Assembly (NCBI GenBank): GCA_046563655.1
Contig: CM102290.1
Coordinates: 9,052,001 to 9,116,000, forward strand
Direction of reading: 5' to 3'
DNA length: 64,000 nucleotides
DNA from: Yuukianura sp. NJ FZ-2021
Lineage: Eukaryota
Part shown: piece by piece, positions 6,101 through 57,394 of the stretch
How positions within the stretch are numbered: the first letter of the stretch is position 1
Layout: each line of letters opens with the position of its first letter
The notes under the pieces: model-generated
Seen by the model: only the letters and a program-made list of their open reading frames with translations
The model's database searches: none
What the model was told of the DNA's origin: nothing
Program-made: the position numbers and the translations under genes

Positions 6101-9100
6101 AAGATCAAACCATAAAGAGGCTGTCGCTACTTAAATAATTTATAGGACTGAAAAGAGTTGTTTCTGACTTTGTGTTTATACTTTCTCTCAGGTTGTGGCC
6201 ACATCATGCCAGTGCAAACAACAATCTGGGAACACTCCTTAACGACTCGGAAGCCGAAGCTCATTTCCAGGAAGCACTCCGAATCAACCCAATCCATGCT
6301 CATGCGTTCTTCAATTTGGCCAACCTCAAACAGTAAGTCTCTCTTTTGTTCTCAAGCCTTAGATGGGGGGACACAATATTCAATTCCTTTCAAATTAGCG
6401 TAGAACAAGGACCTTACGTCTCCATCACCCGCAGCCACTTTCTCATCTTACCTATTTAAAAATGGTAATTGGGAAAGTGAGCTTTGTGTTCCCTGCCTAC
6501 AAGAACGCCTGTCTAGTTACTTCCCTCGGAAGCCTTCCACAAAGCCTTGTATGAGTCGTGTTCCGTATGCAAAAGAGAAGTAGAGAGCCTAATTCGAGCT
6601 AATAATTCCCCCGTGTGGACTCAATTTCCAGGAAGCTGCTAGCGTCAGTTTCCATTGCCGCCTTAAACAAGCGCCTAGTAGTAGGAATATGAGATGTTGG
6701 GTTTGTGTAGCCCAAGACTGCAGAGCGACAAATGAAGATGGACGTGGGGAGGCGGGTTCTTCTTCTGATTCCGAGGACTCAATCATAAATTATTCCGTCT
6801 GCTCTTCGTCTTTTCTCCTTCGCTCTCTTCCGAAGGTCGAATCTCCTCCAGGTTTATACTGTGTATACTACAACATGAGGAATGGAAGCGTCTGGACCTT
6901 CTACCGAATTCACTTGAGACAATTGATGCAGACGTTTGAGAGGAAGAGTGGCAGGCGGAGTCGTTCCGCAGTTGCCCATGCTTTCTCTTACTTTCATTTT
7001 GGCGGAGGAAGTGTCGCTCCATTACGGCCGGTCAGGGAAGGAGGGAGGAGATAATGGCTGGATCCAAGAAAACTCCTGGAACAGAAACCGTCTAAATAAG
7101 TTATTATAATGATGGCTTTGCTCTCGAAATTTCTGAATGTTACCTGGAACACTTCCAAATCAAAGGAGAGAGAAAGTCACTCCCACCCTCCTTCCCACTA
7201 ACCATCTTCTCTCTCTAGAGTCTTTAGGTTTAGAGAAAGATTCCATTTTCTGGCCGTATGCTGGAGGATACTAGTTACTACTAGGAAAATGCTGGGAATA
7301 CAGATTTCCTACTCCACTAGTACCACTACTTTACTACACTTTCTCTCTATTGAGAAAACCTTTTGTAAAGACCAAGGGAGAAAAAAAGACAACGGAGGCA
7401 GAGGAGAGTACTGGATTGTGGACCGTTTCCGTAAAAGAATTATAGCTCATCAGTGAAAAGAAAAAACAGAGATGTAATCATCGGAACTTCCATGCTGAGG
7501 CTGCTGGCAAGGCGGGAAGCTTTCGTCCTATCCCACTATATACTAAACTTTTTATACGTTTTTAGGATCTTATAGAACTGAAACTGAAGAAAATCCTTAC
7601 TCTACGCCGTACTATCTCACTTCATCATGACTCCTTTCTCTTTTCTCCTCTGATTTCTCAATGGCCTCCAAACACGATTTCTGCCAAACTTGCACTTTTC
7701 CTCCTCTCAAATAATTCATTTTAAGCTTTTCCTCCCCTGTTACTGTTCGAGATTAGTTTCATCATCAGTTTCACTATAGTCGTACAGGACTCAAACGCCG
7801 TTCAAAAGGAACAGAACGAATCTATAGAAAGAACAGAGGAATCTTCATCAGATATCTCTTCAGATTGGATAGTTAGTATGCAACTTTAAGACATTCCAGA
7901 ACCTTTTTTGAGTTTAACTATTCTCTCTCAGAGAAAGGAGAAAGTAATATCCCATATTCAGCACAACCTCGTCTTCTCTTTTCTAATCCAAAATTAGATT
8001 CCTATTCAACTTTTGCTTTCTCCTCTTATTTCAAATATAAAAAGGAAAGGAAGAATTTTAAATTCAATTGAAACCTCCTCTCCCACATCCTCATTCTCAT
8101 ATGTATCAGCAGTGACTTGAAAATAAATTAAGAACGGGGTTTAGCAGAAGTAGTTTTCCAACTTTGGAAGAAACAACTGTGCTGGGAAGCATCTCATCAT
8201 TCTCTCTTTGTACTTTTTTGCCAATGAAAAGTTTGTGGAAGAAGGAAAATGATGATGGCGGAGTCTGTTTCACTTCCAGTGGCACGAGTCTGCTCAAATT
8301 TCAATGGAACTGATGATTGTATCCATTTGAGTTTTTTTTCTGTCCGAAAATTGGCTCCACTTTCCTGATCAATTGCTCAATTTCTAAATGTCTAAACGAC
8401 TCCTTGACAATTATGGTGGTTAGAAAGGGGATTTTGATTCTAGGGCTAGAATTCGAATGACTTTCACTTTTTCCTTGGAACAAAGGAAGACAAATTGGGC
8501 AGACGGAGGAGGTCAAAAGATGAAACTGATTCTTGTGGAGCCGTAGAAGTAGTTACATGTAACATCATTACCCTCTTTCCTAACTAGAAGTGCCCCATCA
8601 CTCATATCTCCCCTCACTTTCTCTCTACTGGAACTTGGCTTTATCTCCTCGTCTGGTTAGATCCGCCGAACAGATGAAGAAACCGAAATTACGACCTACT
8701 CGTATCCATCAACCTAAAAAACTCCATTTCTTTTCACTCTCCCACACAATCATCGATTTCTCTCTGCGTCTTTCTCCCGTCTAATCTCCTTTCTTCTAAT
8801 CATTTCCAGTCAACAAGGTCATACCAATTTTGCAATTCGATTAATGGAGAGGTCACTGGAGTTGGAGGCAAACAATCCCGATGCCCTCACTAATCTGGCT
8901 GCCATGTACGCCGACCTTGGTTCCAATTCGAAAGCCAAAGAAATCCATTTGAAAATTTTGAAACTTGAGCCAAACTCGGCAGACCATCTGAACAACTACG
9001 CCGCATTTCTCCAGAAAATCGGTAAGAAAGAATTCTATTCCATTTTTTGGAATTGCGTCAGCACGGGAGCATCATATCCAAAACTGAAACAATTCTTTTG

Positions 9101-11671
9101 AATGACAAAAGCAGACATTTGGTGATGACCTCTCTGTAGGGGTATTGCCTCTAAATGAAAATGATACGATCTCGTCTTAAAAGCATTTGAGCTCTTCCGG
9201 CGCCCCTATAATAATAACACCAACAACATTTCCAAAAAAACGACATTTCTTCTTGCTTCCTTCTATTCCATGCAGGTCGTCTGGAAGAGGCTTTGCATTT
9301 TTATCAGGAAGCACTGCTTAGAGATGCAAATCACACCGTGGCTCTCCTCAACACGGCCAGACTTATAAAGAAGTTTAATCTTCACGACAATGCAGAATCA
9401 CTATATCAAAGGTTAGTCCTTTTTTAGTAAGTGGGGAAAGCGGGAAAAGGAAGGAATATGACTTTCTCTTTAGAGCTGGAAGCTTTCCACGAAATATTTC
9501 ATGTGCCCCTTGCTCTCAACGCTTAGATAAACAAAATTGGCACAGAGTGTGTGGACATGCCAAGACAAAAAAAAATGTATGACCATAAAATAATGGTTCG
9601 TAAATTCTGAAATCGGGCGGAACTATTCAAAGGAGTTGTAGAAGAACTTTGATGAGGACGTAACGATGTAAAGGAGAAAGTTATAGGAAATATGAAACCT
9701 TTTGTCTTCAAATAAACTTCCAGAGCACTGCTTCAGAATGACGATCCACAGACAAAGGATGGACTCGGCGTTCTGTATCTTAGTACAGGCAGAGCAACCA
9801 AGGCGGAAGTACTTTTTACAGAAGCCCTTCGCATTCTTCCAAATGATCCAATAGTCCAAATACATTTGGTAAGTTCAAAAGCATGAGCGGGAAGTGAGGA
9901 CCATTTGTCAGTTACTACTAAAATTCAGCACGACCTCTCTTCCTCATCTCTCCTTCCGCCGACAGAGATCAGAGGAAGATCCTCTGATGTTCTCCTGCTG
10001 CCAAAAAATGAATATTTTCCAGCTGAATAAGATCTTTTAAAAACTTTGGCAGACTCTGCTGCTAAGTAGGCATGAAATTTTACTTTTCTCCATTAAGTCT
10101 CAGCATTTTGAAAGACTGTTGGCAGTGGCACACTAACTTTTAAACCCAGCAGCAGCACAGCTTCCAGCCCATTCTCATCCGGCGGAAGGACTTTCAATTA
10201 TCCTACCGTTAAAAAGTCTCGCCAATTAATCACGCTTTTACTTACAACAAAGGAGCAAGGTCGTGGTGATGTTAGTAGAATCAGTAGAATGTGAATAACC
10301 TTTGGTTGTCATGAAATGGCGAGGAGAAAGTGATTTCACTTTATGTTTCCGTTTTGTGACTGAATTTCTTTTCCTCTTTCCAATTCCTAGGCCCAAGCTC
10401 GTCTGCACTTACGGAAGTATGACGAGGCAGAGAGTCTTCTACTCTCCGTTATGGAACAGACAAACTCCAGTCAACGGGAAGCTCTCCATCAACTTTCCAT
10501 TCTTTACAGTCATTTGAACCGAACGTCAGACGCCGTCAAATATATTAAACTAGCGATCCGTACCTGCAGTGAGACAGAAATAAGCTGTGTCCCAATTCAC
10601 GCCTTTCATGGAGATCTTTCCAAGGACTTGGAAGATTTAGACTCCGCAATTCTGGTGAGTTCTTCTCGTCTATCCTACCAAAAAAAAACTTTCCCGGGTG
10701 GAGAAAGTAAGACTCTTTTTGAAACGAAAAAGCGAGACGATGTTGTCAAAAGAAGTAGTTATAAACGGAGATTCCCTTTGCCATGTCCAAAGGTTTTACC
10801 TATCACTCAAATCCCCTGTCTTCTAATGAAAGCCCAAAACAAATGGTTCACATAAGGTCGGAAGTTCCCACTTAATTTCAGTTTTCGTAGTTTGTAGTCA
10901 TTTACAACATTCAAGAGACGCTTACGTTTTTATGAGAGACACTCAAATTAAAATCTGATGAGTTTTGTCATCTTACAATACACGTGCCTCGAATTCAAAA
11001 TGTAGAAATTGGCAATGAATTAATTTTAATCAGCAATAAAAACCTTCTTTGAAGTAGCTTCACTCAATTTGTCCCCCAATGAGACCTAGAACTTCTAAGA
11101 ACCTAACCAAATCAATGTTCCGATCCGACCAAGTCAAAGGTCAAAAGCTAAAGCTACGGTTGGTTAAGACGTTTCATCGTCTTATCGTTATCGTTATCGT
11201 GAAACGTTATCGTAACGTTTCACATAAAACTCATTCTAAACTTTTAAATTTTTCAAAATACAGAGCTATAAACGAGCAGTGGAGATGCTGATCGAATCGA
11301 AGAGGTGCTGTATTAATCAAAAGTACATGATCCCGTCATCCATTGTTACTCATGTACATCTTAACCTGGGAGCAATTTACCATGGACAGGTAACACACCG
11401 ATTTTTACCTCGTTATCACTATGACATACTACTACAAGCAATAAAAAGTGAAACGGAGTAACTTACCTTCTAACAGGGAAAGTTCAAGGAAGCCTGGACC
11501 CACTACAACGAAGCTTTAGCTCAAGACTCCAGTAACGTCGTTCTTCTCCAAAATATCGAGAAATTAAAACGAGCCGAGATGCAGCATAAGAACAATTCGT
11601 CGTGTGACGGCAAGAAGGGAACCAATTTCCTCTCCAGGCACCAAAGTCTCCCAAGCCCAACAACCAGATAG
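103..11671 (+). CDS. TMTC1: TMTC1-like protein O-mannosyltransferase (transmembrane + TPR repeats), 3' part; 5' exons lie upstream of the window
   Basis: Phase-consistent GT-AG exons 103-273, 678-791, 6192-6332, 8810-9021, 9276-9411, 9724-9868, 10391-10654, 11264-11389, 11477-11671 (TAG). The translation contains KTWLRNEDWRSRESLFTSGLNLLPQNAKMHYNYANLQKDLG...LWPHHASANNNLGTLL...HAHAFFNLANL, the TMTC post-TM motif followed by TPR repeats, closest to the TMTC1 pattern (NAKxHYNYAN, HASAxNNLGTL). Confidence 0.9.
11199..11223. repeat. Perfect 11-bp inverted repeat adjoining a short (TTATCG)n tandem array in a TMTC1 intron
   Basis: GTGAAACGTTA-tcg-TAACGTTTCAC, preceded by TTATCG x3 (11182-11199). Confidence 0.8.
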
Positions 11672-12664: not shown

Positions 12665-15600
12665 TTAGACGAGCCAATGCATTGGCCCTGTGCCTCCGTC
12701 GTAATCCACCCTCTTCAAAAGTGACTGCTCGTAGGCCTCTGTACCAGCCAGCACTGATGCTCCAATGAACGAAGAATGGTAACGATACGGTGAAACTTGA
12801 ATCTAGAATAGAGAATTAACACATTAATATTACTGTCCCATGGCAGCTTCCATAAATTACAAGAGAACAAAAGGGAATAAAATTGGGCCAACTCTTACGC
12901 TTGGTTTTAAGTGCTGAGGTAAAAGTTTTGTCAGTTCCAATTCTAAACGTTCTGGAAACCCTGGAATTTGTGTGCACCCGCCAACTAAAAATATATTTTT
13001 CGACATTTCCTTCCGAATGTCAATTCCGCAATCCTGTATTTAAAAAAAACGGCAATTATGTCATGAACGGGTAATGTGGATTATCGCATATGAATTCCCT
13101 TACAATAAGAGTTTTGCTTAAAATCTTCTGCAAACTCTCGCAGTCGAGGCCGTACATCCCAGGATCAAAAAATCCTTCTGCTACACCTCGAAGTACCTCT
13201 TGATTGACACCAATTAAGTTGGAAAAAGGCAGAATGTCTCTCAGGTCCATTTCAATCACAATTTCTTGAGAGTCTTGTGACAACCTCCGAATCCCTGAAG
13301 CATGTCCGCTTTGAACACTCACAAAAGTTTCGGAAATGTAGCGTAGAACGAGGTTCTCCACAGGAGTAGAAAGGTAAAGGCCATTCTCCTGAAATCAACG
13401 AAATAGCCAAATTAATTATTAAATCAATTACTCAACAAGCAATTCTAAAACCACTCTTTCGAATGGAAAAACATAGATGTGAAATGGTTAATTATTAACC
13501 TGTGGTCCCAGCCCTTGGCGAAGAGCATGTTTTAGCACATGACCTCCAAAAGGCGCCCGTCCCCATGCCTGACTCAATACAAATCCTTGACTAACAGGAA
13601 CTACGTCACACCTTTCACCAATGTCCACTATAATCCCGTTGTCAGCGGAATGTGCCCAGAATGAAATGACGCTCTGATGACACATCAGAACGCTTCGGAC
13701 CTAAAGAAATAGTAAATTATGTTTTGGGTTTCATCAAGCATTTTTTATATTTACCTCAAACTCGTTAAATAGAAGCTGTAGAATGCTTTGACGACATTTC
13801 TTGTCAATCATTCGAGGAAGTGTGAGGATAAGTCGATAGTTGTTGGGTGAGATGTTTAGATCCGAATAAATTTTGCGCAAGAAACCTTTCAGGGCGGCCA
13901 AATCCACATTGTTCTGAAAACAAAGTTTTGGTTTCATGGAATTATTGAATTGAGAATAACATCAATACACTAGTCCTTAAATGATAAACATTGCGTAGCT
14001 CACTTGACACATCTTTGAGCTGCATTCAAATGGAAACTTAATCTTTGCCTTTTTTCGATTCGGTGTCAAGTAAACATCATTGCCGTAAATGATACGCCCA
14101 GTCTCCTCATTCTCTGACATTACTGAATTGAAAAACAATGCGGGGAGCGTAGCTGAAAGTCCAAAACAAAATAACTGTTAGGATAACTGAAAGTGGCTTG
14201 TTGTAATTAATCTTACGCTGGTGAGATAGAATTCCTGCCCTTGTATTAGTTGCACCAAAATCAACTACTAGAATGTCGCGAAAAATTGAAATATTTTTGG
14301 GTAAAGATGGAACAGCAAAGGCCTTTGGAACAACACTTTGTTGCTGTAGCGTTTCAATCCAACGGTTCGCTTCACCCGCAGATCCGCATTGAAAGACATA
14401 ATAGTGTCCTTTCTAAAATATACATGTATATATAATTTTTATACAAAACACGGAAAGTATTATCCTGATTTTTGTAGAAAAGAAAGCCAAATTGTTCCTA
14501 CTTTTGTTTAAATTTTCACTTACACCGTCGTCCACACCCAGGATCCTGTTCATCAGCGTTTTTCCTTTCTCAGGACCAACAAATTCTACTGGATCTAAGA
14601 AGTCTACTTTTCCGCCTATAAGATTGATACTCTGGAATTCGTTTTGGCAGTCATCTTTCTGGAAACACAGGTCAAGTGGAATTAAAAATCGATATTCAAC
14701 AAGAATAAAGACATTGAAATAGTTTGAAATGAGTTTTCTTTTAGAAATTAAAATACCTCGTAGCACAGAAGCTTCCCACTACTAGAAACGCAAAACTTTC
14801 TCTTCCACGCGTTCCAAAATGTTCCTTTCCTTCTATGTCCACTCAAAATCAACATGTGCCCCTCCATACCCTGAGTACTAGGTGTACTTGGCAATCCGCT
14901 TTTGGAACTATTCGTAGTCGGTTCATGAATAGTATAGATTCTTTTGAGCAGTATTTCCTGTCATAAAAAACAAATTCCAATGAGATTAATAAACAATATG
15001 CTATTACGTCAAAAGAGATTGTAGAACCGTTAAGCGTGTCTTACCGGATCCCACTCCGACGGGACACGAATGTGCTTGACAATTATTTCATCGGGCAGAG
15101 AGTTGTGATCACTTTGTTCTTGGTTGTCATCTGGACATGTAGCAGTGACAGTTTGGAGCCAAGACGACGTGTATCCCGGGAGCAAATCCAACTTGGACAA
15201 AGAGTCCGTATTGTTCTTGGATTTCCTCCCTCTGACGACGGTGTCTTCTGAGGAACCGTCAGTCGGTCTATTCAGTTCCTGGTCACTGTCTGACTCCATT
15301 TGACTTGCTGTTTCCTCCAGTATGACTTGTAACCCTGCAACAACGAAACAGTAACAACGTTTTTCATGGAAACTTAACTTCAATAAAAGAGTTTAGTTGG
15401 AAATTACCGTAGTCAACTTCGTCCACGTAGGGAGCGTCTTCTATAAAATCATGGCCGCTGTGTGTCTCTTCATTTTCAAAAGACGGGGAAGAGTTTAGTC
15501 CATTTTCCGCTTCATGGAAAGTGCCGTATACGGGTGACTCTGTGTCACTTCTGTCTTGGTCCACTAAATCAATTCGATTTTTAGGACCTTGAGCCAAAAT

Positions 15601-16802
15601 GAGTTTCGCTGCTTCTGGAATTAGGCTGTCTAGAGGACACAAAATAAAAATTATTCACAAAAAAACAATGCAAAACTAGTATAAAGGTTTGCTGTAACAA
15701 GTAAATGTTAACCCCTGCCTACTGGCTACTCTAAAAACTGCTCTGAATAAATTTCACTTGACAAAAGTGTCATGTCCACAAAAACTCACCAATAAATAAG
15801 GAGGCATTTCCCTTTGGTGCAGCATTACAGTCCCTCGACTTCGGTACTTGATAAATTATGTTCTAAAAAAATTAAAACAAAAAAAAACTAACAAAAACTT
15901 ACAAATGCAAAACAAATGAGTGATTTTTTTGCACAGTGTATATTACAACCATGCACAGAAAAATGTAGCCCGCTTTGGCAATGAAAATGATTTCTGTATG
16001 GCCAAAATGTAAACCACTTCCACCTGTTTTGCTGCTCAAACTGGCTTTAGAGAACTACTGAACACGTCATGTGATCCATCCAGGTAATGTTAAACTTCAG
16101 TTAATAAAAAGTTAATAGTCCTGTTAAACCCAATTAACTAGAACAGACTTTTAGCACAATGCAAAAACAAAAAGAGGCATGCAAAGATTTCGAAAAAGTT
16201 TTTCGTGCACTTAAAAACACAAATTTGTAGAAAACTAATTAGAAGCTCCACACTAATCTCGAGTTAAATGGAGTGGAACCTTGCTTATCCACTTATTGAA
16301 GTGTGCTTCTTCGAGGGAAATCATAACCACTTTAACAGTCACAGAAAAACGTGGTGTAAATTCTATGTGCTGTATCTCTTTTAAACTTTACGAGGATTCG
16401 CAGTATATGTTTCCCTGCCTCAATGAAAAACTGAATTGGTTACTATCACTCTGCATGTCACTTTTCGCCCCAATCTAAGTACTTAAGAAAACACAAACTA
16501 CTTATAACCAGAAAGCAGAAAAAGCTAAGAATCCGGTAATGCTCAATTACTTCTGGAGATGAAGATGATGCCGACGACGAGGAAGTTGTTGACTCGCGAC
16601 AAAAGTTGTTCTCAAAATCTTCTGGAAATGATTCAGATTTGATTTTGCCAAGGGCACTGTTTCCGTGAGCAGTTGTGTAGGAATTGGATTCATTAGTGGA
16701 AGATGATTTGAGCAACGGCGGGATATCGTTGGATCCACCACGAAACAGTAGTGTAGCAGTAGAGGTCACGCTCTTTGGCAGCATTTCTGAGCTCATCTTC
16801 AT
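12665..16802 (-). CDS. PH domain + divergent actin-fold (actin-related) fusion protein, ~811 aa, with Ser/acidic low-complexity N-terminus
   Basis: Phase-consistent minus-strand exons 16802-16551, 15862-15790, 15629-15408, 15334-15045, 14957-14757, 14658-14524, 14412-14217, 14152-14004, 13913-13755, 13700-13500, 13388-13104, 13033-12899, 12802-12665 (TAA), 2436 nt total. PH signature: MEGHMLILSGHRRKGTFWNAWKRKFCVSSSGKLLCYE...YYVFQCGSAGEANRWIETLQ. Actin signatures: ILVVDFGATNTRAG, LLFNEFEV, HQSVISFWA, GIIVDIG, DCGIDIRKEMSKNIFLVGGCTQIPGFPERL, RYHSSFIGASVLA. The start codon (ATG 16802, directly after an in-frame TGA) and the N-terminal exons are less certain. Confidence 0.85.
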
Positions 16803-21950: not shown

Positions 21951-25535
<3,585 letters not shown>

Positions 25536-25805: not shown

Positions 25806-27228
25806 TTAGAGGTTAACGGGGTCTTCGATAAGCCGGCTGTGAACCTCCCACAGATTCTGTAAAACCAAATGGAAATACTGAGTTAAATTGAGTAAATTAA
25901 TCTCTGGAACAAGCCCACTAAATCTCGTAGCTTCGCTTGTGAGGATTGTATTTCCTAGACTTTAGACTTGGTAATACTGGCTAGAATGGACCCGATAGGC
26001 GTGCCGCTCCTAATTCTAATAACAACACAACATATTCTGTCGTATAGTTAATCCGTTATTCAGTAAAAATCCTTTAGTATGTAGAGAATGAATGTTGCTA
26101 ATAATATACTTTGGTGAGAAACTCCTGTGGATCTCAGGCGTGTGTTAAGTAACTTACTTTTTTCAAACTCAAACTAATCAACAATTGAAACTCTGTTTTC
26201 AAGACTAATAAAGAAATAAATTTCCAAAAAAAATGAATCATATGTGATGTAAGGTTTGAAATTTCGCTCCAAAAGTAGTTTGTTACCTTGAAGTATTTGA
26301 CAGTCTTGACCTTGAGCTCGAGCGTAGCATCTTCGTCGCAGAGGATGATGGTGTGAGGATGTTGCTGAAAGGCAGACACCGTCCACATATGACTGATGCC
26401 CTCTTCAATGGCCTTGTACAGTGCCAGTGCTTTCTTAGTCCCAGTAATCAGAATCATCACTTCTCTTGCGTCCATGACAGTTCCAACACCCACTGTCAAA
26501 GCCCTCTTTGGCACCTTGTGAAGATCGTTTTCGAAGAATCTTGAATTGGCAATGATCGTTTCATGAGCGAGAGTCTTGACCCGAGTTCGTGACACCAAGG
26601 ATGACCCAGGTTCATTGAATGCAATGTGTCCATCAGGACCGATTCCGCCCAAGAACAGCTCCACTCCGCCCACTTCTTTGATTTTAGCCTCGTAAGCATC
26701 ACATTCTTGCTGTAAGTCGGCAGCATTTCCGTCCAGAATGTGAACATTTTCTGGAAGGATGTCCACATGCTTAAAGAAGTTGGCCCACATATAGTGATGG
26801 TAGCTTTCGGGATGGTCCTGAGGCAATCCTATAGTAAACGACAATCGCACACAGTTTTAGCGAAGAATTTCGTTTAGCGAATGCTGCAAGTTGTCGCTAA
26901 AAAGTGTTACCTACCGACATACTCGTCCATGTTGAACGTGATGACGTGCTTGAAAGATACTTTTCCCGCCTGGTAAATTTCTATCAGCTTTTTGTACATT
27001 CCCAGAGGGGTTCCGCCTATGAACAAATAAGTTTGAATTTTCATTAATTCATTAATTTATGTTAAGTTTTCACTTGTTAGATGTTTTAAGTTTTGAATAT
27101 TTACCTGTAGGCAGACCGAGTACAAACGGTTTTCCAGGACCAGGCTGGAAATCACGAATTCGCTTGGCGACATACTTGGCAGCCCACTCGGTTACTTTCC
27201 CTTCGTCTTCCAGAATTAAAAGTCTCAT
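25806..27228 (-). CDS. GNPDA: Glucosamine-6-phosphate deaminase/isomerase (Oscillin), 272 aa
   Basis: Exons 27228-27105, 27016-26915, 26828-26287, 25856-25806 (TAA), 819 nt. Motifs [81 protein letters not shown]. Confidence 0.97.
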
Positions 27229-29378: not shown

Positions 29379-32300
29379 ATGTATAAGGTTAAACAGTTCA
29401 TGAACAAGATCACTGACAAGGTTTGTTTAATCTTTAAGTAATATCCTTTTTGAATTGCCTCTCTTACCTCAAATTATCGTAAGAGTAAAAGCAGACGTTG
29501 GTTGATAATTATGCTGAAATTGGAAATACACTTGAATTTCTAGGGAACTGCTGAACCATCCTCTGGTGTTGTGCAAAACGTAGATGACGATCGGGATGGA
29601 CAAGTATCGGCTGAAGGTTTCCTATGCCCGGACTGCATGACTGCATATGCGTCCCCTGAATTGTTGGCTGAACATTATTCCACGAAGCATTTACCCGTCG
29701 CTGCTAGTGCTAACGAATCATATCCAGACGACGACAAACACGAAAACGATTTGAGCCAAGAACACGAACTGATTGAGTTACGCACTGCTCTGGAGGTAAT
29801 ATTGAAATTCGAAAGCAATTGCCTGAGAAATGATTAACTCAATTCTCATTTTTATAATCCAGAGCGAAAGAAAGCAATTTCGTATGATAGAACGCCGTTT
29901 CGAAGAAGTGTTTGAAGAATTAGAAGAGTACAGAAAGAATGCATACAGAATTGACTGCGAACAGACAAATGGTGAGGGTAACTTGGTTAGTGTTAATCCA
30001 GCATTCTTATGTACCAAAGGTAATTCAACTCTAATTCATTGTGTTGATATTTAGCGGAGGAAGAGAAAGCAAGATGGGAGGACGAATGTTTAGGTCTGAA
30101 AAAGCAGGTTGAAGATTGGTCGCTGAAGTACAACAAGACGAACAGTGATTTGGAGCTCGTTAAGACGTCAGCAGCAGAAGAACAGAAAGTGCTAAGGGAA
30201 TCGCTAGATGTTCTCAGGAAGCAGTTTTTAGAAGTAATGTCCTTTTGTAATATCTGTATAATTTACAAACGTGGAGTGGATTATGGTTTCTCAAACAGCT
30301 TCAAAACAAAGCCGCTATCAGTGAGGCAGAGTGTAAGAACCTAAGAGAAGAAATCCAGCGGCTGCGTGATCGACATGCTGAATTGGTACGTGGCATTGAA
30401 GGAGATGCAGGGATGCAGGCTGCTATTGAGTCATTGACCAAGGAAAGGGACGGACTTCAAGCCACCTTGGACACTGTACAAACACAAAATCGAGAGCTTA
30501 CAAAAAACTTACACAATGCTGGACTCGAGCTTGACAATTTGCGAAAAGACAGTGAAATCATCAGCTCGCAGTTTGATGCTTACAAGCTACAAGTAAACGC
30601 CGAGGCAGAAACTCACCGAAAGGAAGTCGAGGAAAAGGTAAGACACTTTTGTACGTCAGTCAAAAAAGTCGTCATTAAATTAACTCGCGAGTATTAGAAT
30701 TGTTATACTTAACTTAATTCTCGTTGTTTGACCAGGATCGATTGTATACGGAGGAGGTCAAAGAGCATAATCGTTCAAAAAGCAGTTGCGAATTACTACG
30801 TAAGTACACAGAAGTATTGTGTTCCGATTCCATTCCTTGTATTTACTCTTGTTTCTTCAGGAACCCAAGTGCTTTCTCAGACCGATGAGATTAAAAACTT
30901 GAAAAGTGGAATAGAAGAAAAAGTGGCACTGATGAAGGAGTTGGAAAAATCTAATGTAAGCAGTGTTCCCTTTCATTGACTGGAAGTCACGAATTCCCAA
31001 GGATGTATTAATGCTTATTGATTCTCTTTTACAGGCGCATTTTAAGGAGCAAATCACTGTTTTAACTGCTGAGGTGGAAGCTTTAAAGACGGAAGTTAGC
31101 CGTCACAAGGACCAATGTCTGTCGGGGGAAACTAAAATTACGGAGCTGGAGAAATCCCTTGCAAAGAGTGCTGAAAATGTGTACCTACTGGAGGCAGAGA
31201 AGGATAGTTTGCAAATGGCGAATAGAAGCATTCAAAATATTCTGGAAGAGCAAAGCAAAGCTTTTAATCGTTACCTGGCGGATGTGAGCAATGTTCTAGG
31301 CATGAAACATCCAGAGTATCGCAATCATTATGGCAATGGTGAAGGTGACGTGGATGCCAGAGAGTCAAACTACGACGCCTACCAGAAACACAGTAATGCC
31401 ATCGTGAAGGGCATGTCAGAAAAGATTATTTCCATGAAGGAAAGTCAAGAGCTACTTCAAAATGAAATGGAAAAGATGAAGCAAGAACTGATGAATTCTA
31501 AGTCAGAGAACGAGAGTTGCGCCAGTAGAAATACGGAGTTAGCTAAAGATCTAAAGGTTCAAAAAGAAGAACATGCCACTGTATTGGTAAGCAGCTATGC
31601 GTTGTTTTTGTCATAATTTGAATTAGATCGCAGTTTGCAGTAGAATTGGTTTCGAGTTATGTACTCATAAGTTTTTTTTTAAACAGGAACGTTTGCGGAA
31701 AGAGATGGAGGAAGATCGTAAATTTTTTGACGATAAGTTGAAGTCTGCTAAAAAGGTGGAGACTCAAGTGGCACAGCTGACAGAGCAAGTTACAACACTT
31801 CAGAGTGATGCTAAACGGTTTCAAGATGAACGTGATAATCTTCAGGCAGAGAGACTGGGTACAAATCAAAACAGAACTAAAACCAAGTTGGAAAAATCAT
31901 TGCTATATTTTCATGTATAGAATTAGACAAGAAGTACAAATCCAGTGAAGAGGCTCGATCACTGCTAATGGATCGGTGCCTCGCCAGCGAAAGTGAGTCA
32001 GAAACCTACAACGAAACCATTCAAGGTTTGCAGAGGAAACTGGCCGATGCTTTGGCAGCGCTACAGGAGCTTGGCAGAGAGAACCAAAGTTTGCAAGTGG
32101 AGAGCGCTAAACTTCAAGGTCGGAAGTGGACGGATGACTCAAATGTTAGCAACTGTTCAAATTGTTCCAAGGAATTTTCGATTACGATACGCAAGCATCA
32201 CTGTCGTGTTGTAAGTATTCAAAATTAGACTATTTCAAAATCAAACTAAGAAAAACTTTGAGTTTCATTGTATTATTCAACTTTTCGTTATTTTTTTTAT

Positions 32301-48800: not shown

Positions 48801-50880
48801 TGTAGACTCGTTCAGTGAATGGAGGTTCCGAAATTTCTGATCCCGTTAAAATTCCCATTCCAACCAGAAATGTATTCTGCCCTTCCTTCGGTTGGATTCA
48901 ACAGAGCGGCAAAGTTTAATTAAGAAATAAGTGGGATTGTTCTTTCAGTTCCTCCAGTCCCAACAACTTCGACGAAAAGCCTTATTGCTAAATCCCTTCA
49001 TATATGCAGAACAGGCATGAAAATGTTTTTCGGAAGAATGAAAGAAAAGAAAATAGCTTCTATCGGTTAGAATTGTTTTAGTAATAAAATTCCGATACTC
49101 TTTTTTATAGACCTTTGTAATTCAATTGATTCCGTTTTTTTATTCGTTATAAAAAAATTTTATACCACGTTATTATCAGTAGACCTAACCGAACGGTTTT
49201 CAAAATAATAAAACGAGATTACGTTTGTGCTTGGGCGTATTTTTATGCATTGGTGAATTCGTATCATTTTAAATTTGGGCGCCATTTTTGGTTTGGCGGA
49301 AGAGTTTTGACGTTTCGCTGGAAGTGGTTTTTGTATAAAAATTATGAGTTTGGTAAAACGGAGAGAAAGTTTCAACTTTGGGTTGCAGTGAAGTGAAAGT
49401 GAGGAGGGGGAGGCAGTAAAGCATAGGTAATGGTGTTTGAATTGAGACGGGAGCTTAGGCCGAATGAAAGGCAATCATCATACGGAGGAACAACTGAAGA
49501 TATCAAAAAGTTCTGGATGAGTAGACGACTGGTTGGTGGTTGTAGTGTCTGGTCGTTGGGTGTCTAACATGGTGGGAATAAATGGAACTCAAATATCCAC
49601 TTCATCTTTCCAAACTGCTCCAGCAAAAGTCGCTTTCTCTCCAAACATTTTCTCCAGTTGAATTTTCCTGCTTCATTCAAACATAAAAAGTAAAACTCCC
49701 TAGGTTTCAAACGACTCTGGAGAAGATCCCATATCTGTCTCAAAAATTTCTTGGTTTGTGTATTAGGTGTAGATGGAGAGAGGACCTTCGCAGCATTAGC
49801 ACCAAGAACTCCAATGGAACCGGTCCACTGAAATATGAAACGACCTTTGCTCTATAAAAAAATCCAGCTTTGGTCCAGCGCTGTTTTCACCAAGGCAAAA
49901 ACAATTTTGGATACCTTCATAGACGTAGCTAACGACTTTCCCGGACGTAGTAGAAAAGTTTTTTTTCCCAATAATTACGGTTTCAACGTCGTTTTCCGAC
50001 CTGATGGAAATTCTTCAGTCATAATTTTCCTAAATGTTTTAAACTTTTTGAATTTGATAAACCATCGCCAGTTATAAAGTTCACTTCAAATGGGAACTTT
50101 TCGGTCATGAAGGCAAGAATTTTTTGATAAAGTCGTAGGTTTAGGTTTTTAGTGTGTGAGGGTCGTAGAGGAAAGGAAAGCAGCATAAGTGATGTCTAAT
50201 GGACGATGTCTTGAAATGGACTTCCTGGAGCTCGACCTTGAATTGAGTCGAAGCCCATTTCTAAAAATTCCGGAACCGGCAGACACTTTTTGTCGTACAA
50301 GGAGTGTGGAGGACAAATGGAGAAAGTGTGGATTTACTCTCGTGTCACAGTCACTTTCACTCACGCTCCCTTAAGCCTTCACATTAAACTGCCACTCTCC
50401 ATTTCTTTCAATTCAAATAGAATCCGCTCTTCCGCCAAACCCACTTACCTACCCCATTCAAAACATCCATTCAATATCCGCCCTTCCCACTACTTCAAAT
50501 ACGACTTTTAGAAAATGTTTTTCGAAAAAGAAAAGAAAAAAGAAATAATAATGTTATGTGCCAAGCATGCATGTTTTTACTTCATTTGAACGGAGCTTAA
50601 TACAATTCAAAAACGTCGCAAGTTGGAACATATTTTTACGTCAATTCAAAAAGGCCTAAGAATTGTGATTTTTAGAAAGTTGAGACCTTGGAACTTTTAC
50701 AATCGAATTAACCATAGGCGGGATCAGCCAAAATATACGACGGAGGATGGAAGTGACGATAAGAGTATGTTGTCCCAACTTTTGGACGCTTTCTCCCCTG
50801 TGACAGGGATAAGATCCTATTGATTTGAAAATATGGGAGTAGAGGCTCAAGTATTTGGAGAGCCACAATAGTAGGTGATA

Positions 50881-51546
50881 TCACAAACTGATAAACAAAA
50901 GTTGGAATCAAAAAAGTGGGAAAGATTAAAAAACAAGCTTCTCCCTATTCATATAAAGTCCTTAATTTGGAGATTTTGGCATAATGCCATTATTTCGTTT
51001 GATATTGCTAAAAATATGGGCCTAATTTCAGACGGCAGTTGCCCATACTGCCATCAAACAAAGACTTTCTGTTTGCACCTAATTGTGTGCATATCTACGA
51101 AAAAATTGTGGGAATATGTTCATTCACTATTAAAAAAATCAGATTCAAAGAATAAGGTTTATGATAAGACTTTTGGTTGTAATGATGATTTTGCTAACTA
51201 TCTCATTTTTAGTGCAATATATATTATATACAATAGATTTATCTATAATATTAACTCTGGTAAGCTAGATTTCGATATTATAGGTAAATATAAGCAATTT
51301 CTGTTCCAAAATATATTTTTAAGTTTTCATAGTTTTAAAAGTAAAAATGATATTGACCAATTTAGACGTCTTTGGTCAGATGCCAAATTTATTAATATTA
51401 ATCCGAATTCTGTTGAAATTAATTTGTAACTTTAAGATACACTAATTCCTATGTTATGTCATAGTTTAAGTCACATTATGAAATACTGAAATATATTTCA
51501 CGAAAAAAAAAAATAAATATGTAAATTATTTGTAAAAAAAAAAAAA
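50881..51546 (+). mobile_element. 5'-truncated non-LTR retrotransposon (L1/Tx1-like LINE 3' end) with poly(A) tail and target-site duplication
   Basis: Open frame to 51429 encoding LLPIHIKSLIWRFWHNAI...CPYCHQTKTFCLHLIVCISTKKLWEYV, the Cys/His zinc-binding region found after LINE reverse transcriptase. AATAAA near 51512, A13 tail at 51534-51546. Direct repeat GTAGGTGATA at 50871-50880 and 51547-51556. Visibly more AT-rich than its flanks. Confidence 0.88.
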
Positions 51547-55326: not shown

Positions 55327-57394
55327 TTACGTAATTGTGAGTTGGGCATTTGGGTCATCATATTTGTCTCTGTAAGTATAGAACAGCGTTTTGAGACCTT
55401 CCACGTACTTGGTATGCATGGCATCAATGTCTTCCTGGCTTGGTTCACTAATTTTCGGCACAGGAATGGGTTTTCCAACTAGTAGAAATGGGAATTTGGC
55501 AAATAAAAAATTGGTGAAGGCAAGCCTCGTTTTTTTACAGAGTTTTTAAATCCTAAATTTATAATGGAAGACTTACCGACGGTGTAAATTGGCTTCCGCT
55601 GAGGTAAAAGTCCTAGAAAATGAGCCTTATAAATTTAGTTTGTGAGCCAGCGACGATTCATACACTTTTTAAAGAAGCCGAAATGGGAAATACTTACCAA
55701 AAGAGTACTGAAAAACTCCGCGTCCAAGGAACAGAACGGGCGCCAATCCAGCAATTCTCTGCAGCTTATTTTGAAATTTCCTTAAACGTCCGCCCTGTAA
55801 AAAGATTGAACACGAGAAATTTTCAAACCTGAGCAGAAAGCGTCATGGCTGGTCCTCATGATGAAGCTATATAGAGAGAAGCGTACCTCTGGATTGTTCA
55901 CTTGGTCATAAATATTAGTCTCTCCAAAGGAAAACACCGGAACGAGGGAGGCTCTGGAGCCATTACATTTACATAGACATTAGTCAATGTTGTGAAGAGA
56001 TTTAAAAGAGGCCTTACCCGTTCCGAAGCGCCAGTTTGATAAAACCCTTCCGATTCTTCAGATGGCAAATGTAGGAATCAGGGTGCGAATCTAATTCAAA
56101 GATTACAATTTAGCACGACTAGAATGTAAACAACCTCAGTTCAGCTTTGACTCAATTCAAGTCTTTCTGTTCAACTCTGTTTGTGCTTCAACACACGACC
56201 GTGACCTTTTGAACAATTCAAAAGTCATAATGTACAAAATTGGTTTCGAAAAAAAAGTCTAAAACCTACCCAAGGATTCCGGTGCTCCACCTACAACTAA
56301 AACTGCAGCGTGGCCTCCGTCTGGATGACTCAGGAGGTAGTTCATGCTGGACTTTGACGCAGAGCAACATCCTAGAAAAAGTCATTTCATTGGCATTACT
56401 CTCCCACGTCATGTTTCAGAGATCAACGGTGGGTTTGCGGTCAAAGGCAGAATAAGTTTGAATTGGGAAAAGCTTTTACCAGTGCTCATCAGGAATTCTC
56501 GGTAGAAGGGAAAGGAATAGTGTCCCTCGAGAGTGAGTAAATGTGGTGTAATTCCTGGAAAGACTTTTCCAACGTCTTGACCTTCCGTGGCAAAGCTTCC
56601 AAAGGCTCCACTGCATAGGACACCGTGTGGATGAGATCCAAACAGATAGTTCTTGGACGGATCCAGTTCCGTTGTTTTGACTAGGTGGATCGGATAGTAG
56701 TTGTTGTACCACTTCCAGAGTCTCCAATTTCGCAACCAAGCTGACCTACAAGCCATGCATAAACTTCCCATTTGTAGTCAAAACTATTAAGGCTTTCTGT
56801 GGGACCGTAAAATATTTTTTCGTGGGTTTACCGCCTTCCACCGCGGTTACAAGTCTCCTTGTCGTAGATGAGCCAAGCCAAGTACAGAACTGACACGAAC
56901 CCAAAACGCGTAAAGAGGAACAAATAGGACAAAAAAATAATTCCCATTGGACCCATCACGAAGAAAGTTGAAATCCATATAAATACAGCCAAGGTTTCAC
57001 GGCGCCGTTCCCTATGAACGGCGTAAAAAATAGCTACGTTTCATTTTTGAATCATTCATATCCAGAACATGGTAGTGTAAAACTTTAATTAAGTTTTTTA
57101 ACGTGGTTTCTGGAAATTAACTCACCAGGGAACGTCAAGCGGAGCAAATTCGACTCCGAGGACTTTCTTTGACTTTCTCTTGGGACTTCCTCCTCCGCTG
57201 TTCAAAGGGAAAGAAACATGTTCATTTTGTCAAATAGTTTGTTGTTTTCGTCAAACGACGACGGAAACGTAAACAACTTACTTCGCCAGCTCCCTAACAT
57301 TGGAATTCGCATCTCGACGTACAGAGGTGTTTGGAGTGTTTTGCTCATGCTCAGTGGAGCTACTGTCTGAATCGTTTGCAGAGTCTGACTTCAT
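55327..57394 (-). CDS. Monoacylglycerol/diacylglycerol O-acyltransferase (MOGAT/DGAT2 family), ~385 aa
   Basis: Exons 57394-57282, 57197-57126, 57011-56832, 56745-56480, 56371-56270, 56090-56018, 55953-55887, 55794-55698, 55612-55577, 55478-55327 (TAA), 1158 nt. Motifs VEFAPLDVPWERRRET, YYPIHLVKT, KNYLFGSHPHG, VVGGAPESL, NRKGFIKLAL, LVPVFSFGE, TVVGKPIPV. Confidence 0.93.

Follow-up and report, generated by a model that had tools for sequence, protein, structure and literature searches.

An intact gene, probably from a springtail, joins a PH domain to a divergent actin fold and belongs to an uncharacterised family of arthropod actin-related proteins

The DNA analysed here is a stretch of 64,000 nucleotides from Yuukianura sp. 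NJ FZ-2021 (NCBI GenBank assembly GCA_046563655.1, contig CM102290.1, positions 9,052,001 to 9,116,000 of the forward strand), hereafter the window. Its G+C content is 39%. A gene of 13 exons lies on the minus strand, from position 16802 to 12665. The spliced model encodes 811 amino acids with no internal stop, and GT-AG borders were found at all 12 introns. The encoded protein has a long N-terminal region followed by a PH domain, which a linker of about 20 residues joins to an actin fold. We refer to proteins with this layout as PH-actin proteins. The exons are listed below in order of transcription. P0004 and P0005 are the proteins of Orchesella cincta and Allacma fusca, respectively; other P numbers denote further proteins and fragments recovered in our searches.

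16551–16802, minus strand: exon 1, tentative; 84 codons, Ser-rich, with an ATG at 16802; GTAATT donor in phase 0, which fits exon 2.
15790–15862, minus strand: exon 2; 73 nucleotides, with the tyrosine motif IIYQVPKS; P0005 residues 60–84 match 15862–15791; AG acceptor and GTGAGT donor, ending in phase 1, which fits exon 3.
15408–15629, minus strand: exon 3; acidic and probably disordered, with the motif DSLIPEAAKL; matched by P0005 residues 84–121 (15633–15538); GT-AG borders, phase 1 in and out.
15045–15334, minus strand: exon 4; motif GLQVILEE, ending ...IRVPSEWDP just upstream of the PH domain; matched within P0005 residues 156–322; fragment P0033 covers the same stretch; GT-AG borders.
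14757–14957, minus strand: exon 5; N-terminal helix and PH strands beta1 to beta3, with the basic loop GHRRKG..WKRK; Pfam PH 3–34, E 0.057; the strands have equivalents in the orthologue model.
14524–14658, minus strand: exon 6; middle PH strands; in frame, GT-AG borders; 78% identity to P0040, which has the same borders; no Pfam match when taken alone.
14217–14412, minus strand: exon 7; last PH strands, C-terminal helix ANRWIETL, linker of about 20 residues and actin phosphate-1 loop VVDFGATNTRAG; a single open exon; Pfam PH 83–103, E 0.047.
14004–14152, minus strand: exon 8; actin subdomain 2 region; in frame, entered in phase 1; placed by tblastn of P0004 and P0005.
13755–13913, minus strand: exon 9; actin subdomain 1 region; Pfam Actin 82–122, E 0.039.
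13500–13700, minus strand: exon 10; Gln137 equivalent (CHQSV) and phosphate-2 loop (VDIGERCDVVP); Pfam Actin 124–187, E 1.4e-9, 37.5 bits.
13104–13388, minus strand: exon 11; divergent subdomain 4 region; no Pfam match; conserved within springtails.
12899–13033, minus strand: exon 12; adenine-pocket loop (LVGGCTQIPGF); Pfam Actin 317–358, E 1.1e-7, 31.3 bits.
12665–12802, minus strand: exon 13; C-terminal segment of the actin fold (SPYRYH...), followed by the stop codon, 12667–12665; Pfam Actin 369–398, E 0.004.

The nine exons running from 14957 to 12665 each have an AG acceptor and a GT donor. Joined, they give 532 in-frame codons and the stop codon. This part of the gene had been proposed in an earlier note on the same DNA and it translates as one frame. 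The note also placed the start of the gene at 14957, which proved incorrect. Upstream exons were sought by tblastn of P0005 against the window. Residues 156–322 matched positions 15335–14709 and residues 84–121 matched 15633–15538. Hence, the gene extends upstream of 14957. Four further exons were placed there, the first of them tentatively, and about 280 N-terminal residues are absent from the earlier model. Direct joining of the ATG-bearing frame 16802–16551 to the exon at 15629–15408 was ruled out by phase. A low-stringency tblastn search with the Allacma N-terminus identified the 73-nucleotide exon 15862–15790, which restores the phase. This exon reads NIIYQVPKSRDC... where Allacma has SIIYDVPKSNEC... 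(52% identity, E 2e-4 in 8.4 kb). Exon 1 is the least certain part of the 13-exon model.

The model and P0005 are identical at 57.5% of aligned positions (431/749). By region, identity to Allacma is 88/225 in the N-terminal part, 79/122 (65%) around the PH domain and 264/402 in the actin part. The core of the model is 70% identical to Orchesella P0004 (347/495). Exon 11, which lacks a Pfam match, is 74–86% identical to fragments P0001, P0002, P0028, P0030 and P0031, and 62% identical to P0003. One of these, P0002, is a spliced C-terminal fragment of 133 residues, and it joins the equivalents of exons 11 to 13 exactly as modelled.

The PH domain and the actin fold meet in exon 7. The minus-strand frame 14960–14748 reads ...MEGHMLILSGHRRKGTFWNAWKRKFCVSSSGKLLCYE, and the frame 14412–14107 reads KGHYYVFQCGSAGEANRWIETLQQQ...FRDILVVDFGATNTRAGILSHQ as one uninterrupted exon. 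Both strings are present as the earlier note quoted them. Within 14412–14217, a single exon runs from the C-terminal helix of the PH domain into the phosphate-1 loop of actin, as the note had also stated. The borders of this exon recur elsewhere. Fragments P0036 and P0027 both start at the KGHY border of the junction exon and both cease to be homologous after the ...THQ border; in P0027, homology picks up again within the next exon, beyond an unaligned insert. These fragments come from other springtail-like sources, as does P0040. P0036 contains the junction exon with the same borders, and P0040 contains the middle PH exon with the same borders. Since P0036, P0027 and P0040 share these borders, the fusion is not an effect of mis-joining. 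The orthologues, moreover, carry both PH and Actin domains by Pfam and by fold, and the note's claim that mis-joined genes could not account for the fusion is borne out. A search with the junction exon alone for longer proteins gave nine candidates, none of them significant.

Evidence that the two domains form one protein also comes from full-length relatives. A profile built from 14 non-springtail members was compared with the model using hmmsearch. It aligned residues 262–800, covering PH domain, linker and actin fold, in one stretch (E 3.7e-157). A match of this kind is far beyond chance. Several relatives are whole open reading frames on short contigs, for example 737 residues on a contig of 2564 nucleotides. 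In this they resemble transcripts. We considered an artefact or dead gene, arising either from two neighbouring genes mistaken for a single one or from a PH exon beside an actin copy in decay. Taken alone, the PH exons of the window do score weakly, as this explanation would predict. However, the PH helix and the phosphate-1 loop share an exon, all 13 exons are free of stops and frameshifts, and P0002 confirms the joining of the last three. Furthermore, the protein is 57–70% identical to two springtail proteins and 30–37% identical to 15 more distant arthropod proteins of the same layout. An artefact is therefore extremely improbable. We conclude that the gene is intact.

To identify relatives, protein representatives were searched with exon 13104–13388, which returned three fragments including P0002. 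Searching with P0002 for longer proteins then recovered an Orchesella cincta 'actin' (P0004, A0A1D2NK87, 495 residues) and an Allacma fusca 'PH domain-containing protein' (P0005, 769 residues). Of the 8000 candidates that were scored in a profile search with the springtail proteins, 43 reached E ≤ 0.001. Precomputed annotation assigns both PF00022 and PF00169 to 14 of the 43. Alignment A2 comprises the 18 hits of at least 426 residues; 23 short fragments and two actin-like proteins of ordinary length, P0035 and P0038, were left out. Homologues occur in at least 12 named arthropod species, whose orders we assigned ourselves. Mayflies are represented by Neocloeon triangulifer, Cloeon dipterum and Ephemera danica, and Odonata by Hetaerina americana, Ladona fulva and Ischnura elegans. 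Crustacean members are from Homarus americanus (lobster), Pollicipes pollicipes (barnacle) and Armadillidium nasatum (isopod). There is also a sea spider member, from Nymphon striatum.

Family members range from 665 to 1262 residues, with N-terminal regions of widely varying length. Identity between the window protein and the non-springtail members is 30–37%, and blastp against the 14 members used for the profile gives 30–36%. The family motifs D-I-G-E-R-x-D, S-P-Y-R-Y-H and T-F-W-N-A-W-K are all present in the window protein. On the basis of these signature motifs and the continuous profile match, the window protein belongs to the arthropod PH-actin family. We also built a quick tree, for which support is given by the Shimodaira–Hasegawa-like approximate likelihood ratio test (SH-aLRT) only. 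The window protein groups with the two other springtail proteins (SH-aLRT 100) on a long stem of 2.48 changes per column. The 17 PH-actin rows separate from the two actin-like rows of ordinary length (SH-aLRT 100). Mayflies, Odonata and crustaceans each cluster together. The clades follow taxonomy across arthropods, as expected for vertical descent. No hit from Holometabola or other Neoptera was found in the shared-word search, which was limited to 8000 candidates; this is only a hint that the family is absent from those groups. In the ESM Atlas, clusters annotated Actin 100% and PH 76% were found for Arthropoda, and Actin 100% and PH 35–38% for Nematoda (scores 0.89–0.94). A further nematode cluster has an actin domain in 557 residues (score 0.94–0.96). 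All of these clusters are leads only.

Domains in the window were scanned exon by exon against Pfam, for which the cut-offs are 25.1 bits (PH) and 27 bits (Actin). Of the nine exons from 14957 to 12665, six gave matches that are individually weak and collinear; three gave none. Exons 13500–13700 (37.5 bits) and 12899–13033 (31.3 bits) each exceed the Actin cut-off. Across the family, Actin (PF00022) was found in 18/18 members and PH (PF00169) in 16/18 at E ≤ 0.001, the best PH match having E 5e-12. For Actin, E values were 4.5e-42 for P0004 and 8.9e-40 for P0005 (144.5 and 136.9 bits across the orthologues). The PH domain of P0004 scored 26.9 bits (E 7e-6).

We modelled the PH domain with AlphaFold2, using a 148-residue part of P0005 as the first row of alignment A3. 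The mean predicted local distance difference test score (pLDDT) was 74. In the model, seven strands lie between an N-terminal helix and a C-terminal one at residues 120–135. All 50 of the Foldseek matches listed are PH domains, the best being PEPP-3 (2d9y, 6.9e-8), SKAP55, PLEKHA7, the C-terminal PH domain of pleckstrin, and Grp1. A seven-stranded beta sandwich closed by a C-terminal helix, as in the PH fold, is thus predicted for an orthologue that is 65% identical to the window PH domain. The actin fold was modelled with AlphaFold2 on P0004 using alignment A2. All 50 Foldseek matches listed against the PDB are actin or actin complexes (E about 1e-23, template modelling score about 0.70 normalised to the target, 24–26% identity). 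The model points to the four-subdomain fold of the actin/Hsp70 type in this orthologue, subdomain 4 being of low confidence.

The aligned sequences indicate which features of actin are retained. The actin domain is compact and actin-sized; its alignment to actin, at about 25% identity, is nearly gap-free (364 versus 359 residues), with no large insertions. The phosphate-1 loop keeps its Asp and Gly across the family, with a closing R-A-G. Gln137, Gly158 and His161 are residue numbers of actin; the letters compared are those of the alignments. The Gln137 equivalent is kept in 18/18 rows, and the GG of the adenine loop in all 16 rows that cover it. Actin reads D-S-G-D-G-V-T-H-V-V-P in the phosphate-2 loop, and the family reads D-I-G-E-R-x-D-(I/V)-(V/I)-P. 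In the family the Asp and Gly of this loop are kept, and an equivalent of His161 is absent. An Arg takes the place of Gly158 in 18/18 rows, preceded by E in 14, D in three and S in one (P0017). This Arg, encoded in the window by exon 13500–13700, is a family signature. The C-terminal segment of the family reads S-P-Y-R-Y-H. Conservation of the Asp/Gly pairs of both phosphate loops, of the Gln137 equivalent and of GG in the adenine loop makes it probable that the domain still binds nucleotide. Its catalysis probably differs from that of actin, given the Arg at the Gly158 position and the lack of a counterpart to His161.

Actin isoforms are about 90% identical among animals. With 24–26% identity to actin structures, the domain is not a conventional actin. 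A second possibility is that, in arthropods, a PH domain was gained by a member of a classical actin-related protein (Arp) class, Arp1 to Arp11. Divergent Arps share about as much sequence with actin as this protein does (about 25% identity), and class membership was judged indirectly, by best matches among solved chains. All solved chains were searched with P0004 using phmmer, which matched 156 distinct sequences. The best 60 of these are conventional actins throughout (117–135 bits), none of them a chain that is named as an Arp. Large insertions are typical of Arp3, Arp5 and Arp8, but are lacking from the near gap-free alignment of the PH-actin domain. The motifs D-I-G-E-R-x-D and S-P-Y-R-Y-H are also the family's own. 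By this indirect test the protein lies outside the classical classes, and membership of one of them is very unlikely.

Thus, where Pfam, AlphaFold2 and Foldseek had been put forward as a check for both domains, the orthologues support the assignment. The protein matches conventional actin better than any classical Arp class, the evidence for Arps being indirect. Homologues had been suspected, and the 12 or more arthropod species above supply them. The earlier note knew of no characterised protein with this architecture; we found no description of a PH-actin fusion family in the full-text literature searched, which excludes subscription journals and supplements. In the parts available, neither the Dictyostelium actinome paper nor the Drosophila Arp paper mentions a PH domain. 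Database records of the members carry generic names: 'actin', 'actin-like', 'PH domain-containing protein' or 'uncharacterized protein'. We rate as real an uncharacterised and unclassified actin-related family with a PH domain, of which the window gene is one more member.

We next consider the N-terminal region. Of 279 residues counted here in the window protein, 44 are Ser, 24 are Glu and 23 are Asp; the region, of about 300 residues, is probably disordered. No Pfam domain was found in the N-terminal region of the Allacma orthologue. It does hold short motifs common to the family. A tyrosine motif, (I/T)-Y-D-x-P-(K/R), is repeated upstream of the PH domain in several long members. There are five copies in the Homarus protein, five in P0016 and four in P0015, numbers reached by 0/2000 shuffles. 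Each of two mayfly proteins has three (2 and 4 of 2000 shuffles), and Allacma has two (4/2000). The window has a single Y-Q-V-P, which was reached by 132/2000 shuffles and is not significant alone. No copies were found in 4 of the 11 N-terminal regions tested (P0009, P0013, P0014 and P0017). The slightly wider form (I/T)-Y-(D/Q)-x-P-(K/R) is present in the small conserved window exon 15790–15862 on the minus strand, and in the N-terminal regions of P0005, P0006, P0008, P0010, P0015 and P0016. YxxP, including 'YDxP', is described as the consensus for Src phosphorylation and Crk SH2 binding in the p130Cas substrate domain (PMC12071665, available part). By analogy, a docking function for the tyrosine motifs is a lead, not a finding.

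Such motifs would allow the protein to act as a signalling scaffold. Phosphorylated YDxP motifs would recruit SH2 adaptors (Crk, Nck), the PH domain would keep the protein on phosphoinositide-rich membrane, and the actin fold would seed, cap or anchor filaments. The system would be independent of Arp2/3 and gated by signals; it may be ancestral to arthropods and lost in model insects. If the nematode ESM Atlas clusters are true relatives, it is possibly ancestral to ecdysozoans. We regard this scheme as a long shot.

Our main proposal for the mechanism is as follows. The PH domain would bring the protein to a membrane or cortical site by binding either a protein partner or acidic phospholipids. 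At that site the actin-like domain, with nucleotide bound, would contact actin filaments or actin-binding proteins and so serve as a cap, a seed or an anchor. The domain is unlikely to assemble into filaments itself. Worded in this way, PH-mediated recruitment of a nucleotide-bound actin-like module is a tentative proposal, with somewhat less than an even chance of being right. Taken together, an intact 13-exon gene with N-terminal region, PH domain, linker and actin fold, in an arthropod family and with a mechanism of this type, is the best explanation overall and rather probable.

Several observations weigh against this interpretation. First, for the mechanism, ATP binding, actin binding and localisation are all things that we infer. 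Second, the splice junctions rest on consensus sites and homologues, and by tblastn exon 1 (16802–16551) has no significant similarity to the Allacma N-terminus. Third, the PH domain of the window is split over three exons, and its scores of 14.4 and 14.6 bits (E about 0.05) are under the 25.1 cut-off; so is the PH domain of P0005 (23.0 bits, E 1.2e-4). Both folds were modelled on orthologues 57–70% identical to the window protein, the domain evidence coming from single exons and these orthologues. The full-length P0004 model is of moderate confidence (mean pLDDT 65, predicted template modelling score 0.61), and residues 331–392, the subdomain 4 region, are poorly predicted (pLDDT below 50). 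Fourth, the canonical pattern of phosphoinositide-binding PH domains is K-Xn-(K/R)-X-R across beta1–beta2, with a K-R-R form. The window sequence, LILSGHRRKG...WKRKF, has no Lys at the end of beta1, and a Lys replaces the final Arg, so that the pattern is incomplete. All three springtail proteins read L-I-L-S-G-(H/N)-R-(R/K)-K-G and lack the beta1 Lys. Finally, many PH domains have no specific lipid binding, and most bind phosphoinositides weakly or not at all.

This last group of observations bears on the main rival. Here, the architecture is real and the PH domain is a protein-binding module, recognising a small GTPase, a phosphoprotein or actin. The protein would then be a soluble or complex-bound scaffold, like nuclear Arps in remodelling complexes. 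The missing beta1 Lys of the springtails, the K-R-K of the window and the weak or absent phosphoinositide binding of most PH domains are all as this explanation would have them. A long N-terminal region with conserved short motifs and no Pfam domain also fits a scaffold. Yet most family members keep K...K-R-R and a strongly basic beta1–beta2 loop. Specifically, the sequence (E/D)-K-L-P-S/T-G-(R/K)-(K/R)-...-T-F-W-N-A-W-K-R-R is found in 11 of the 15 non-springtail rows, so that beta1 ends in a Lys and beta2 starts with K-R-R. The three rows from Odonata carry W-K-S-R, fitting (K/R)-X-R, and P0010 has W-K-R-L, which does not fit. The best structural matches, moreover, are lipid-binding PH domains: PEPP/PLEKHA, Grp1, the C-terminal PH domain of pleckstrin, and FAPP1. 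Nothing pointed to a nuclear location either, although no search was aimed at one. We judge a protein-binding PH domain to be somewhat unlikely. For membrane recruitment, the beta1–beta2 loop of the window is strongly basic despite its incomplete pattern, and lipid binding by this PH domain is plausible, if less canonical than in the rest of the family. The case for a membrane-targeted, phosphoinositide-binding protein is thus weaker than the earlier note made it.

Elsewhere in the window, a Pfam scan identified neighbouring frames as ordinary eukaryotic genes. TPR frames lie at 8718–9098, 10391–10852 and 11474–11671, all on the plus strand (TPR_17 4.4e-11). They suggest a multi-exon TPR gene, convergent with the PH-actin gene and ending near the latter's 3' end. 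Three consecutive plus-strand frames at 22198–23283 match positions 35–297 of the Hsp70 profile (E 6.8e-29 to 7.6e-21). These frames overlap or shift, which implies short introns or frame changes. A frame of 240 residues at 26137–26856, minus strand, matches the glucosamine-6-phosphate isomerase/6-phosphogluconolactonase family (7.8e-16). At 30251–32225, plus strand, the first frame is a coiled coil that matches CENP-K weakly (1.5e-5, below cut-off), and the next one starts a FYVE zinc finger (3.5e-9). Both may be part of a single gene, the product of which would be a coiled-coil protein that binds phosphoinositides. Finally, one of the frames 50875–51426 (plus strand) and 56412–56777 (minus strand) has a reverse-transcriptase-associated zinc-binding motif (zf-RVT, 1.7e-5, narrowly missing the cut-off), a hint that part of a retroelement survives there. 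The other matches diacylglycerol acyltransferase (6.3e-32).

To our knowledge, the classical Arp classes carry no lipid-binding domain, and Arps are among the best-catalogued eukaryotic families. If true, a conserved arthropod PH-actin fusion would represent a new means of bringing an actin-like module to a membrane. The family combines its own invariant change in the phosphate-2 loop with N-terminal tyrosine motifs of the adaptor-signalling kind. For annotation, records named 'actin' or 'actin-like' hide a distinct PH-actin family. That the 12 named species all fall outside the standard laboratory models may explain why it has gone unstudied.

The closest known proteins are the other arthropod PH and actin proteins. 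They share the order of N-terminal region, PH domain, short linker and actin fold, and the signature motifs. The springtail members differ in their long branch and in the loss of the beta1 Lys of the PH domain. No member with a studied function was found in the literature searched. Conventional actin has the same fold and size, the near gap-free alignment, the phosphate-1 and phosphate-2 Asp/Gly, Gln137 and the GG loop. However, the PH-actin family is about 25% identical to it, has E-R in place of D-G in phosphate-2, lacks a His161 equivalent and has a divergent subdomain 4. It also adds the PH domain and a long N-terminal region.

More distant parallels come from other kinds of protein, for which we draw on the available parts of the sources. 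PH-domain docking proteins with YxxP motifs, and substrate domains of the p130Cas type, resemble those PH-actin proteins that have 3–5 (I/T)-Y-D-x-P-(K/R) copies upstream of the PH domain (PMC12071665). In contrast, the window has a single Y-Q-V-P, and the PH-actin family has no SH3 or PTB domain. Dictyostelium filactin likewise has a C-terminal actin fold after a long N-terminal extension (PMC2441452). Its actin domain is, however, highly homologous to conventional actin, and the available text of that paper does not mention PH domains (PMC2441452). Drosophila Arp53D also has a divergent actin fold outside the classical classes and an N-terminal appendage (PMC8291977), and in the part of that paper available the appendage is reported to direct localisation. 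The Arp53D appendage is a short unique tail in a young, Drosophila-restricted protein (PMC8291977), whereas PH-actin proteins have a folded PH domain and span chelicerates, crustaceans and hexapods. Arp53D is a precedent for a non-canonical Arp that reaches its site by means of an N-terminal appendage.

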